From assembly GCA_038999215.1 (NCBI GenBank), contig JAWABM010000003.1:1-46169 (forward strand): a DNA stretch of 46,169 bases, written 5' to 3'. Each line of letters begins with the position of its first letter. Positions within the stretch are counted from its first letter, which is position 1. Both the position numbers and the translations under genes were made by a program. The notes beneath the pieces are model-generated. The model made no database searches. It was not told the DNA's origin and was given only the letters and a program-made list of their open reading frames with translations. This document shows, in pieces, positions 18,606 to 22,345 of the stretch. This DNA is from Candidatus Aenigmatarchaeota archaeon (GTDB taxonomy: Archaea; Aenigmatarchaeota; Aenigmatarchaeia; Aenigmatarchaeales; JACQIB01).

Positions 18606-19277
18606 TCACGCCGTCCTTATCAGCGGCTCCTCTTTCCCGACCGCCACCACCAGTTTCAGGGGAGTTTCAGTCTTTTCACCCCCTATCTCCAGCCACGCCC
18701 TCTTCAGCAGCCCCTTCTCGACCTTCTCCAGCTTGGCTATCCTTCCGCTGTGCTTTCCGGATATCACCATCACGGTTGCTCCTGGCTCGAACTTGACAGA
18801 GCCGATTATCTCCTGGCTCGGCACCTTTATCAGCAGCGAGTCGTTCACCGAGTAGTTTCCGCTCTTGACAATGATGTTTCTTCCATCGTGCAGGTTGAGC
18901 TGGGTCCTTCCGCCGCGGAGCGTCTTCTTGCCGGCTATTTTGCATATCTTCCTGTCAGCTTCCTTGCCCTCTATCTCGACCAGCCTCATCTTCACGCCGG
19001 GAAGCATCCTGTAGTTCTTGCCTGCCACGCTCAGTGTGTCGAACAGCCCAACGCCCTGCCTCACGTTCCTTACCTTCTTTCCGTCAAGCAGCACATTGCC
19101 CCCGTTTATTATCTGCCTGGCCTCCCTGGCGCTGTCCCCGAGCTTCAGAACGTCCCTTATTATGACAAGCAGCGGCATGCTTTCGTCCCTCTTGTGGCTG
19201 CCGCGGGGCTTCATTATGAACTTCTTTTCTTTCTTCTCCATCGCCCATGCGGTGGCCACCCTCTTCAATCTTGTCAT
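18606..19277 (-). CDS. rps4e: 30S ribosomal protein eS4
   Basis: RLKR, PLLVIIRDVLK, QLNLHDGRN, GKHSG. Confidence 0.96.
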   Translation of the reverse strand: MTRLKRVATAWAMEKKEKKFIMKPRGSHKRDESMPLLVIIRDVLKLGDSAREARQIINGGNVLLDGKKVRNVRQGVGLFDTLSVAGKNYRMLPGVKMRLVEIEGKEADRKICKIAGKKTLRGGRTQLNLHDGRNIIVKSGNYSVNDSLLIKVPSQEIIGSVKFEPGATVMVISGKHSGRIAKLEKVEKGLLKRAWLEIGGEKTETPLKLVVAVGKEEPLIRTA

Positions 19278-19278
19278 C

Positions 19279-19638
19279 TCACTTCACCCTTGTCAGTATC
19301 CTCTGCCTCTTCTTGTCGGCCATGTCGGCCTTGATTATCATCAGGTTCGAGGCGTGCAGCGGTATCTGCACTTCCTCGCCGGAGACCTTCTTCCTCTTCA
19401 CGCTGTCGACGTATACCTTCCCTGCCCTGAGATCAACAGCCGTGACCTTCCCCGTCATCATCTTGTTGTCCCCCCTCATCACCTTTACCTCGTCGCCCTT
19501 CCTTATGCAGAGGCTCCTCCTCTTCATGTCTTTCGAAAGCCCGTCGCTCAGCCTTGCGAACAGCCTTTTCCTCAGCACGTGCATCTTCGCTTGGTGCACG
19601 GCCTTCCTCTGCTTCGAGGGTTTCTTTGTTACCATCAT
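19279..19638 (-). CDS. rpl24: 50S ribosomal protein uL24
   Basis: KPSKQRK, IRKGDEVKVMRG, PLHASNL. Confidence 0.96.
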   Translation of the reverse strand: MMVTKKPSKQRKAVHQAKMHVLRKRLFARLSDGLSKDMKRRSLCIRKGDEVKVMRGDNKMMTGKVTAVDLRAGKVYVDSVKRKKVSGEEVQIPLHASNLMIIKADMADKKRQRILTRVK

Positions 19639-20033
19639 ACCACCATCGTCGATATCTTGGCTATGCCCGAAAAGCGCTCTACCGCCTCCTTGGCAACAGG
19701 ACCTTTGACTCTTGTACCTTTGACATCGCCCTTCTCGTTCACCAGCACGCATGCGTTGTCCTCGAAGGACACGCGCATGCCGTTCATCCTCCTGTATTCC
19801 TTCCTCTGCCTGACTATCACGGCGTCCACGACCTCGTGCCTTATCTTGGGGTCGCCTTTCTTCACGGCGACCGATACCAGGTCCGCCACCCCTGCCATCG
19901 GCTTCCTTCTCTTGACTCCCTTGTATTTCTTGACCGCTATAATTTCCACTATGTCAGCGCCTGTGTTGTCTATGCACCTTAGTCTGCTTCCCACCTGCAG
20001 GCATCTTGTCACCGAGGCCGATACGGCTTTCAT
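19635..20033 (-). CDS. rpl14: 50S ribosomal protein uL14
   Basis: CIDNTGA, AVIVRQRKEYRR, FEDNACV, KGPVAKE. Confidence 0.98.
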   Translation of the reverse strand: MKAVSASVTRCLQVGSRLRCIDNTGADIVEIIAVKKYKGVKRRKPMAGVADLVSVAVKKGDPKIRHEVVDAVIVRQRKEYRRMNGMRVSFEDNACVLVNEKGDVKGTRVKGPVAKEAVERFSGIAKISTMVV

Positions 20034-20389
20034 CTGATTACCTCCACGACGGCGAACGACTTGGTCTTGCTGAGCGGCCTGCATTCCACTGCCTTAACGA
20101 TGCTGCCGGCCTTTGCTCCGACGCACTCAGGGTTGTAGGCCGCAACCCTCCCCTTCCTCCTTTCGTACCTCTCGTATTTGGGCACGTACTGCACAAAGCT
20201 CCACTCGATTATCGCGGTCTTCGCGGCCTTCGCGCTGATAACGGTGCCGCTTATGACTTTGCCCCTGAGCGAGAGCGAGCCGTGCCACGGGCATTTCGGG
20301 TCGCTGCAGTGCTTCTGGGGCGCATTCGCCTCTATTCCTATGTTTCTCTGCTTCCTCTCGCTGAGCTTCTTCTTTGATAGCGTCATCAT
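20030..20389 (-). CDS. rps17: 30S ribosomal protein uS17
   Basis: CSDPKCPWHG, VPKYERYERR, ECRPLSKTK. Confidence 0.97.
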   Translation of the reverse strand: MMTLSKKKLSERKQRNIGIEANAPQKHCSDPKCPWHGSLSLRGKVISGTVISAKAAKTAIIEWSFVQYVPKYERYERRKGRVAAYNPECVGAKAGSIVKAVECRPLSKTKSFAVVEVIR

Positions 20390-20670
20390 CACCACTTCCT
20401 TATCCTTATCTTTATCCTGTCCTCGGGCCTCTTCTCTATTATCCTGCCATCGACCCTGACCTTTGTTCTGTCGGGCAGCGTGAAAATGAACTCCGCCGAG
20501 CGCTTCGCCACCTTCTTCACGCCCTTCTGCGTCTTCACTGCGAGCATTCTCTTGGTCTCATCCACGACTTTCCCGCTCGTTCCGGCAAGCGACGCGTTCG
20601 TGCTGCGGCCGACCTTGACGCCGAGCCCTATCAACTCGTGCCTCACGAGGTTTTTAGGCGTTATCATCAT
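20389..20670 (-). CDS. rnp1: RNase P protein Rpp29
   Basis: ITPKNLVRHELIGL, GKVVDETK, RPEDRIK. Confidence 0.95.
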   Translation of the reverse strand: MMITPKNLVRHELIGLGVKVGRSTNASLAGTSGKVVDETKRMLAVKTQKGVKKVAKRSAEFIFTLPDRTKVRVDGRIIEKRPEDRIKIRIRKW

Positions 20671-20963
20671 TCCACCTCTATCTTCTCCGCGGGGAAGCCG
20701 TACCTGATCAGCAGACCCTTCACCTTTTCCTTGTGGTTTCCCTGGAGCTCTATCTTGCCTTCCTTGAAGGTCCCTCCGCAAGCCAGCTGCGATTTCAGCT
20801 TCTTCGCGATATCCTTTGAGTCCTTTTCCACTCCCTCCACGATTGTCACCCATTTTCCGTACGATCTCTTCACGCTGTAAACCTTTATCTTGGCTTCCTC
20901 CTTCGCCATCTTGCCGCAGACGCACAGCTCTTTCGGCAGCCCGCAGACCTTGCATACTGTCAG
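20667..20963 (-). CDS. sui1: Translation initiation factor aIF1/SUI1 (apparent CUG start, 98 aa)
   Basis: Conserved N-terminal CKVCGLPKELCVC lies upstream of the first ATG (20909); LKSQLACGGT, IELQGNH. Confidence 0.93.
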   Translation of the reverse strand: MTVCKVCGLPKELCVCGKMAKEEAKIKVYSVKRSYGKWVTIVEGVEKDSKDIAKKLKSQLACGGTFKEGKIELQGNHKEKVKGLLIRYGFPAEKIEVE

Positions 20964-21166
20964 CGCTTTCCACCTCTTTTCTTGAGCTCGGTGATTATCT
21001 TCGCTATCGTCCTCCTTGTCTCCTTCACCTTGCCCGTGTTGCTCGGCGAACCGCCGACCGCAGACTGCGCCCTCTCCTTGGCCAGCCCGATCCTGAGCTC
21101 GGACATCCTCTTCATGAGGTCCTCCTCGCTGAGCTCGTGCAGCTGTCTATTCCTTATTATCGCCAC
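20960..21166 (-). CDS. rpl29: 50S ribosomal protein uL29
   Basis: GGSPSNTGKVKETRRTIAKIIT; GTG start. Confidence 0.95.
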   Translation of the reverse strand: MAIIRNRQLHELSEEDLMKRMSELRIGLAKERAQSAVGGSPSNTGKVKETRRTIAKIITELKKRGGKR

Positions 21167-21935
21167 TTTCCTCCGCCTCCTCTATTTCAACGTAATCCTC
21201 TTCCTTTGCGCCGTCCGCATTATCCGCCCCTTCCACGGATCCTTCTGGCTTGCCATCTTTCCCGGGCTCCGTTTCCTTGGCCGTGTCCGCTGCCATATCC
21301 CTCCTTACCTTCACCGTCTTCATGACCTCGGGCGCGGCTGCCAGCTCCTTTTCCACCTTTCTCATGGCCTCTATGTCCTTCGGTATCTCGCTGAGTATCC
21401 TGACCTGTATGCCTATGTGCCCGAGCTTCACCTGCGCCGTCGCATAGGCCTTCCTCATCTTCTCCGCGGGCTCGCCCGTGAACTTCAGGTAGCCGGCCGA
21501 GAACTTCTCGGTTCTTCCTATCTCGCCGCCGAGCTTGCCGCTTATCCTTATCGCGACGCCAAGCGCGCCTGCCTGCATTATCCTGGTGAGCGCGAGGTTG
21601 ACGACCCTCTTGTAGTTCAGGCCGCGCTCTATCGCTGCCGCTATCTGCTTGGAAATTATGCTTGCGTCCAGGTCCGGGTTCTCGACCTCCTGCACGTCCA
21701 GTTGCGGGTTCTCTATGCCGAACTTTTCCTTGAGCGCCTGCGTCATCGCCTCTATGGTCTTTCCTCCGCGGCCTATCACCATTCCTGGCTTCTGTGCGAA
21801 GACCGTTATCCTCATGGACAGCGGCGTCCGCTGTATGTCGCTATGGCTATAGCCAGCGCGCGCGAACTCTTTCGAAAGGAACTCGTCCACCTGCAGCAGC
21901 CTGAGGTTCTCTTTTATGAATTTCTTCTCTATCAT
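21147..21935 (-). CDS. rps3: 30S ribosomal protein uS3 with acidic C-terminal extension
   Basis: ARAGY, PGMVIGRGG, ISGKL, KLGHIGIQV. Confidence 0.97.
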   Translation of the reverse strand: MIEKKFIKENLRLLQVDEFLSKEFARAGYSHSDIQRTPLSMRITVFAQKPGMVIGRGGKTIEAMTQALKEKFGIENPQLDVQEVENPDLDASIISKQIAAAIERGLNYKRVVNLALTRIMQAGALGVAIRISGKLGGEIGRTEKFSAGYLKFTGEPAEKMRKAYATAQVKLGHIGIQVRILSEIPKDIEAMRKVEKELAAAPEVMKTVKVRRDMAADTAKETEPGKDGKPEGSVEGADNADGAKEEDYVEIEEAEESGDNKE

Positions 21936-22345
21936 TTCTTCTCCGCCCCTGCCGCTTTCTTTGCCGCCGGCCTCAGTATCGCGTGGATGTGCGTGGACTT
22001 CATGTGATAGCCGTACATTCTCTTGGTCCTGCTCCTCATCATGTTCGTGCCCTGGTGAGCCGATATCAGCAGCGTCATTTTGGCCGGCTCTATGCTCCTG
22101 GCCTTTGCGTTGAACTCCAGCGATTCGAGCAGCCTGCCTATCTCCTCCGCGGTGGCGGTGTGATACCTGCCCCTTATGCTCTCCTTGCCCTCGGCTATCG
22201 CGGCAACGAGCTTTTTGGCCGCGCCGAACTCCATCCTGTTCAGCTTTCTGCAGACTATCGTCGCCGCCTTGGTCGACACGCTTGCCGTGGTCCTTGCGCA
22301 GACCATGTCCTTTGTTATCGGCATCGTGTAATCCATAGTTATCAC
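21932..22345 (-). CDS. rpl22: 50S ribosomal protein uL22 (divergent, short)
   Basis: Position rps19-rpl22-rps3; [19 protein letters not shown]. Confidence 0.88.

Follow-up and report, generated by a model that had tools for sequence, protein, structure and literature searches.

The bacterial gene infC, which encodes IF3, has an AUU start codon and is subject to translational autorepression. As PMC6237735 discusses with reference to Ivanov et al. 2010, the gene for eukaryotic eIF1 itself has a conserved suboptimal start site, and eukaryotic eIF1 is also the only factor for which feedback is mentioned in that discussion. Regarding archaea, Sulfolobus aIF1 is cited as discriminating against non-canonical starts (in PMC6237735 and PMC4705826), and rejection of AUU by aIF1 in vitro is reported in PMC4705826. 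According to PMC8211752, a frameshift that had been suspected in the Sulfolobus aIF1 gene was later ascribed to a possible sequencing error. Furthermore, stop/start overlaps are described in PMC6728339 as supporting termination-reinitiation coupling in archaea. In a full-text literature search no paper was found that states a non-AUG start or an autoregulation of archaeal aIF1, and discrimination by aIF1 specifically against CUG was not found documented in the literature searched. The 2020 review PMC7531240 makes no mention of autoregulation, feedback, near-cognate, non-AUG or CUG.

Here, the aIF1 gene of an Aenigmatarchaeota archaeon was analyzed, which lies in a stretch of 46,169 nucleotides, in the following called the window. 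The host assembly comprises 571 kb in 24 contigs and is 88% complete. On the minus strand, a ribosomal protein cluster has the gene order rps19, rpl22, rps3, rpl29, a SUI1-family gene, rnp1, rps17, rpl14 and rpl24, and the succession rpl29 - aIF1 - rnp1 is also present in the 30 loci of the same taxonomic order that were compared. The features at and around the start of the SUI1-family gene are as follows.

20960..21166, minus strand: rpl29 (ribosomal protein L29), with a GTG start at 21166 and the stop codon TGA at 20962-20960
20971..20976, minus strand: Shine-Dalgarno (SD) sequence GAGGTG within the terminal part of rpl29, complementary to the 16S tail over 6 nt
20961..20963, minus strand: CTG, the proposed aIF1 initiation codon, sharing CTGA with the rpl29 stop
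20667..20963, minus strand: aIF1/SUI1 coding sequence, 98 codons plus the stop codon TGA at 20669-20667
20916..20954, minus strand: N-terminal zinc knuckle CKVCGLPKELCVC, from the translation of the aIF1 frame
20907..20909, minus strand: first in-frame ATG of aIF1, an internal Met according to the open reading frame list and the relatives
20389..20670, minus strand: rnp1 (RNase P protein component 1), whose ATG at 20670 forms ATGA with the aIF1 stop

The product of the SUI1-family gene matches the Pfam family SUI1 (PF01253) with 63.9 bits (cut-off 25.5) and NCBIfam NF002096 with 129.1 bits (cut-off 98), its residues 3-97 covering positions 4-101 of the 102 positions of the latter profile. The solved aIF1 chain 4mo0_A, which is also contained in 5jb3 and 5jbh, was matched with E=1.1e-29, residues 3-97 of the query aligning with residues 4-101 of the chain. 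In this alignment the knuckle CKVCGLPKELCVC, which is of the archaeal CxxC...CxC type, is placed on ICPRCGLPKELCVC, residues 4-17 of the chain. The closest named database records are from Candidatus Aenigmatarchaeota MAGs, and the gene is the sole SUI1 match in the 88%-complete assembly. Judged by these matches, it is a bona fide, intact aIF1. The identity of its two neighbours was established in the same manner, for rpl29 by PF00831 (E=6.1e-13) and TIGR00012 (45.1 bits, cut-off 22.6), and for rnp1 by PF01868 (E=2.5e-23) and NF046110 (91.1 bits, cut-off 90).

The locus resembles infC in that a fidelity factor would have a near-cognate start in its own gene, preceded by an SD sequence, in that this gene is part of a ribosomal protein operon, and in that the near-cognate codon differs between lineages. 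It differs from infC in that the fold of aIF1 is unrelated to IF3, the codon is CUG and not AUU, and the aIF1 start overlaps an upstream stop; moreover, feedback is established for infC, whereas for aIF1 it is a proposal. With eIF1, aIF1 shares membership in the SUI1 family by homology and the role of rejecting poor start sites. The eIF1 start, however, is weak because of the Kozak context around an AUG, on an mRNA that is scanned, whereas the weakness of the aIF1 start would be that of the codon itself, positioned by an SD sequence in a polycistronic mRNA. The characterised archaeal aIF1 proteins (4mo0_A; studies in Pyrococcus abyssi and Sulfolobus) are of the same family and length and have the same N-terminal zinc knuckle. 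The ATGA coupling of archaea and bacteria described in PMC6728339 is similar with respect to the 4-nt overlap and the SD sequence inside the upstream gene, but here the overlap is CTGA, with a near-cognate codon in place of ATG, and CTGA is not mentioned in PMC6728339.

The minus-strand sequence around the start is AAGAAAAGAGGTGGAAAGCGCTGACAGTATGCAAGGTCTGC. The aIF1 frame is open from stop to stop between 21146 and 20667 and translates across the start region as EKRWKALTVCKVCGLPKELCVCGKMAKEE (longer stretch: EKRWKALTVCKVCGLPKELCVCGKMAKEEAKIKVY), while the open reading frame defined in it by ATG, GTG or TTG covers 20667..20909 and 80 aa. A preliminary description of this DNA had claimed that the zinc knuckle is encoded upstream of the first canonical start and that a CTG at a suitable distance from an SD sequence precedes it, and both claims were confirmed. 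The knuckle (20954-20916) lies 5' of ATG 20909 with no ATG, GTG or TTG before it, ATG 20909 being located 15 codons past the first Cys of the knuckle. The CTG at 20963-20961 follows GAGGTG (20976-20971) after 7 nt (20970-20964) and overlaps the rpl29 TGA as CTGA. Upstream of the knuckle, CTG 20963 is the only near-cognate codon with an SD-appropriate spacing, and both GTG 20973 and ATG 20955 are out of the aIF1 frame. The 3' tail of the 16S rRNA of this genome is GGATCACCTCC (contig C5); GAGGTG pairs with it over 6 nt, giving an aligned spacing of 9 to the CTG. The equivalent spacing in the model mRNA of a P. abyssi initiation study is 8 (PMC6237735). The fold of the region 20920-21020 was not more stable than that of shuffled sequences (z=-0.01), i.e. 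local RNA structure near the start was not detected by this comparison.

A 4-nt stop/start overlap and an SD sequence inside the upstream gene are thus both present at the rpl29/aIF1 junction (CTGA, 20963-20960). Overlaps of this kind had been described as a feature of the operon, and they indeed recur in it, as ATGA at rpl22/rps3 and aIF1/rnp1 and as GTGA at rps19/rpl22. Because 4mo0_A aligns from its residue 4, the knuckle starts 3-4 residues after the initiator Met in characterised aIF1, and this position of the knuckle relative to the initiator Met matches the CTG site in the window. The public protein record on the contig of the window, with 98 aa and the N-terminus MTVCKVCG, begins at the CTG, as do the NCBI-sourced calls on the contigs of loci L031 and L047. 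We consider it very likely that translation of aIF1 starts at CUG 20963, and we infer that the first residue of the protein is Met.

The first canonical start in the frame is ATG 20909, and some pipelines do call proteins of 80 aa (P0029, P0048). A start at this position would yield an 80-residue aIF1 without zinc knuckle and would leave the upstream in-frame stretch untranslated. However, when the 13 knuckle codons of 29 relatives of the order were compared to those of the window, 203 synonymous and 59 non-synonymous differences were counted, a ratio according to which the knuckle is under purifying selection and the upstream stretch is translated. The alignment of the solved aIF1 with the knuckle from chain residue 4 onwards also argues against the internal start, and no SD-like motif was found directly 5' of 20909 when the sequence was read by eye. 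Furthermore, the codon aligned with ATG 20909 in the 29 relatives is ATA, ATT or ATC in 17 cases, CTG in one and ATG in just 11, which is the pattern of an ordinary Met/Ile position and not of a conserved start. A protein starting at Met 20909, which had been named as the observation that would speak against the CUG start, is therefore disfavoured, and we regard it as highly improbable.

The preliminary description had proposed a survey of start codons in related genomes, in which relatives using ATG or GTG throughout would have spoken against a CUG start. They do not do so. Of 41 genomes of the same order, 40 have the gene, and at the homologous position there is CTG in 24, ATG in 7, ATA in 4, GTG in 3, TTG in 1 and a codon ambiguous between TTG and CTG in 1; among the 24 is genome G005, in which the SD sequence contains a mismatch and the CTG was assigned by hand. 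The codon in the order is always NTG or ATN, and CTT, CTC, CTA and TTA occur in none of the 40 genomes. All four genomes with ATA belong to one family. In two loci of the order (L004 and L005) a TAG stop immediately precedes the CTG, and therefore there is no other possible start for aIF1 in them.

In the rest of the phylum, 50 genomes were inspected, which were chosen non-randomly among the better-scoring rows of 260 others with a match and span 19 families. They have ATG in 37, TTG in 4, ATC in 4, ATA in 4 and ATT in 1 case, the ATA of one of them (G087) being ambiguous with a GTG. The near-cognate codons outside the order but within the phylum fall into four families. ATA, ATC or ATT is used for aIF1 in other Aenigmatarchaeota families at L114, L115, L117 and L119 (f2), L122, L134 and L140 (f9), L157 and L164 (f18) and L127 (f35). 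In each of these loci, the codon follows an SD sequence of 7-8 nt (GGAGGTGA or GAGGTGAT), the aligned spacing being exactly 9, and in many cases it comes right after a stop codon. In a further family (f16; L133, L148 and L151), aIF1 has an N-terminal extension with an additional CxxC pair before the knuckle, e.g. MTEVCPTCGAPASLGICSKCGLPTELCTC; the starts of these extended proteins are canonical, ATG or TTG.

A separate phylum-level group, the Hadarchaeota-type loci, contributes 35 loci (in the range L036-L090) to a set of 80 named loci. Here, the start position is occupied by CTG in 29, ATG in 4 and ATA or ATC in 2 loci. The CTG loci have GGAGGTG upstream, and in most of them rpl29 and aIF1 are in one frame, with an in-frame stop (TGA or TAA) and one further codon between them directly before the CTG. 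In the four ATG loci, the ATG is located two codons further 5', only 3 nt after GGAGG, and two loci have ATA where these four have their ATG. Two more Hadarchaeota-labelled loci, among the 80 nearest to a Heimdall aIF1, have ATG.

The remaining 42 of the 80 named loci, labelled Nanoarchaeota, Woesearchaeota, Pacearchaeota, Bathyarchaeia, Heimdall, Thermoplasmata and others, have ATG in 38 and GTG in 3 cases, and the motif is absent in one. Accordingly, near-cognate codons were found in none of the 41 scorable loci of other lineages among these 80, nor in any of the 80 loci nearest to a Heimdall aIF1 (ATG in 63, GTG in 17). The sampled Methanocaldococcus and Methanothermococcus loci have ATG. 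Among the Heimdallarchaeota-type loci, GTG is the start in 17 (L178-L193 and L196) of the first 22; it precedes the first Cys by five or six codons, and no SD-like motif was detected by the script upstream of these GTG starts. In total, a conserved near-cognate codon is present in 28 or 29 of the 40 genomes in the order, in 9 of the 50 from the rest of the phylum and in 31 of the 35 loci of Hadarchaeota type. By this survey, the near-cognate start of aIF1 is lineage-specific and recurrent, not universal.

The source of the window is a metagenome-assembled genome, and a sequencing or assembly error hiding a true ATG could be suspected. Since 24 genomes of the order and 29 loci of Hadarchaeota type, all assembled independently, have the CTG, the chance of such an error is negligible in our view. 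The comparison between lineages also bears on recoding, that is a frameshift or stop read-through from rpl29 leading to an L29-aIF1 fusion, or initiation at an AUG in another frame with a frameshift thereafter. In the window, no stop codon interrupts the aIF1 frame across rpl29, and in many Hadarchaeota-type loci an ATG that is out of frame lies 19 nt upstream of the first Cys codon. However, the relation between the rpl29 and aIF1 frames varies, with CTGA in the window, TAG-CTG in L004 and L005 and TGA-GAG-CTG in the Hadarchaeota-type loci, and therefore no one recoding event fits all of them. No slippery heptamer was seen by eye at 20990-20960. The upstream ATG is missing in the window, and it is absent in 10 of the 29 Hadarchaeota-type CTG loci, for which reason an AUG with subsequent frameshift was rejected for this group. 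We thus consider recoding to be most improbable.

The constraint on the start position was examined by comparison with a Leu codon in the same genes. Among the CTG loci, all 23 of the Aenigmatarchaeota (leaving aside one locus in which the motif varies) and all 29 of Hadarchaeota type have CTG at the start position. The invariant Leu of the CGLP motif, six codons further on, is encoded by 4-6 different Leu codons and by CTG in 2 of the 23 and 10 of the 29 loci, and the third positions of the Cys, Gly and Pro codons flanking it vary, too. Since the CTG is fixed while the CGLP Leu codons drift, the constraint acts on the nucleotides, as is the case for a start codon. An out-of-frame ATG over the first Cys codon (GTATGY or ATATGY) was considered as a possible correlate of the CTG starts. 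Within the order this hexamer is present in 19 of 22 CTG loci and in 2 of 8 canonical loci, but the idea was dropped because the hexamers are common in ATG-start lineages.

Furthermore, the SD sequences were compared between the codon classes in 85 of the 90 genomes, five being dropped (two hand-called and three whose aIF1 is extended at the N-terminus). On average, the contiguous SD match is 3.45 nt for ATG, 5.7 for GTG and TTG, 5.35 for CTG and 7.4 for ATA, ATC and ATT, the scores being somewhat inflated by a start-assignment script that favours candidates with an SD sequence. Before ATG, the SD sequence is absent in 13 of 42 cases and the spacing is scattered from 4 to 13. In contrast, the spacing is 8-10 in 22 of 23 CTG cases and exactly 9 in 12 of 13 ATA, ATC and ATT cases. 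A rank test of SD strength against codon class gave p=1.3e-7 on genomes and p=1.3e-4 on family means; the genomes are related to each other, and counts and p-values therefore overstate their independence. The bias of the script cannot produce an 8-nt SD sequence whose distance to ATA, ATC or ATT is fixed. By these measures, SD strength is higher the weaker the start codon. This inverse relation is also in line with a selection for a fixed total initiation rate.

A genome-wide screen for near-cognate starts with an SD sequence at suitable spacing yielded three CTG candidates, whose translations look out-of-frame by eye; with just 75 ATG starts having an SD sequence of at least 5 nt and 7-25 background hits for any codon, this screen had little power.

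The following mechanism could account for initiation at this site. The SD sequence GAGGUG in the end of rpl29 would pair with the 3' tail of the 16S rRNA and thereby place the CUG, which forms CUGA with the rpl29 stop, in the P site of a small subunit, either one fresh from termination on rpl29 or one newly bound. The initiator Met-tRNA would read the CUG with a mismatch at the first position, and the protein would begin with Met-Thr-Val-Cys. Regarding the tRNAs of this genome, ARAGORN, with introns allowed, found no tRNA with the anticodon CAT, i.e. neither initiator nor elongator tRNA-Met, among the 47 predicted in the 88%-complete assembly. The tRNA-Leu(CAG) has 89 nt, which is the length of a long-arm Leu tRNA.

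Initiation complexes that form on codons other than AUG are destabilised by aIF1, and a near-cognate start in its own gene, kept in place by a good SD sequence, should therefore tie aIF1 synthesis inversely to the amount of free aIF1. Synthesis would go down when free aIF1 is plentiful and up when it is scarce. The same principle applies to bacterial infC with its AUU start and to eukaryotic eIF1, whose AUG is in a poor context. Such an autoregulation fits with the observed pattern, namely a near-cognate start that is specific for aIF1, that is found repeatedly, in distinct lineages and with differing near-cognate codons, and that is accompanied by strong SD sequences. We give a self-limiting feedback through the weak aIF1 start about an even chance, and a CUG start combined with feedback on aIF1 synthesis, for which the probability is in our estimate slightly above one half, is the best overall explanation of the locus. 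ATG is the aIF1 start in 7 of the 40 genomes from the order and 37 of the 50 sampled elsewhere in the phylum; since many lineages have ATG at this position, any feedback would have to be dispensable or achieved otherwise.

The serious rival accepts the CUG start as real but takes it for a fixed attenuator, which would keep aIF1 output low and constant as compared to the ribosomal proteins on the same transcript, with no sensing of its own level. Among the relatives, a weak codon with a strong SD sequence alternates with ATG and a weak or absent SD sequence, as if total initiation were held constant, and the many lineages that manage with ATG are also in line with this explanation. The start codons of the neighbouring genes argue against it. 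In the 30 loci of the order, canonical starts were found for rps3 in 26 of 26, rpl29 in 30 of 30, rnp1 in 29 of 29, rps17 in 30 of 30, rpl14 in 30 of 30 and rpl24 in 27 of 27 cases, the denominators being the loci with a hit whose N-terminus falls inside the locus and four cases having been settled by eye. Combined, this amounts to 172 of 172 canonical starts in the neighbours as compared to 8 of 30 in aIF1. Especially rnp1, a non-ribosomal and presumably low-abundance product of the same operon, has a canonical start in all 29 loci, 27 of which are ATG. In addition, CTG, ATA, ATC and ATT arose in several lineages, but solely in the gene of the factor that judges start codons, and ATG with a weak SD sequence would be a simpler path to low output. 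We therefore regard fixed attenuation as rather unlikely. With respect to rpl29 itself, its start in the 30 loci of the order is TTG in 8 (L006, L008, L011, L013-L016 and L018) and GTG in 4, including the window.

Overall, the CUG start of aIF1 is very likely and is conserved, and autoregulation is the best available explanation for it. By analogy to the known systems, this suggests a control of aIF1 at its own start codon in a small-genome archaeon. On a wider scale, start-codon stringency might be under homeostatic control in all three domains, the aIF1 genes of Aenigmatarchaeota and Hadarchaeota having repeatedly gained CUG, AUA, AUC or AUU starts with SD sequences scaled to the weakness of the codon. 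This generalisation is tentative, and we rate it a little below an even chance; with the same reservation, the cell would sense how much aIF1 it has through initiation at this codon, and aIF1 could be listed next to infC and eIF1 as a third, independent case. If true, bacteria, eukaryotes and archaea would all gauge the proofreader of start codons by the poor start site of its own gene. As IF3 is unrelated and eIF1 related to aIF1, this would point to repeated convergent evolution. The graded compensation by the SD sequence would then represent an in vivo ranking of archaeal start codons, with AUG > GUG/UUG and CUG > AUA/AUC/AUU. The combination of an SD sequence with CUG or AUA is a simple natural construct with which the stringency of aIF1 could be measured in archaeal systems, either genetic or in vitro.

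The gene calls for aIF1 are inconsistent. Besides proteins of 98 aa beginning at the CTG, there are calls of 80 aa cut at the internal Met, of 96-99 aa from a Val codon beside the first Cys and of 104 aa from a GTG inside the SD sequence. Thus, many aIF1 sequences in the databases lack or misstate the zinc knuckle.

Some further open frames were observed in this region. The rnp1 frame (minus strand, 20389-20994) is open over 201 codons and extends backwards through the whole of aIF1 to GTG 20973 inside the SD sequence. The translation of this extension is rich in Arg, Gly and Glu, and the extension is not conserved, with 0-18 open codons upstream in most relatives; the long open rnp1 frame is probably a by-product of the purine-rich coding sequence. 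On the plus strand, two antisense open reading frames, 19018-20037 with 339 codons and 20982-22007 with 341 codons, span ribosomal protein genes. They exceed the real genes in length and thus defeat any gene picking by the longest open reading frame.
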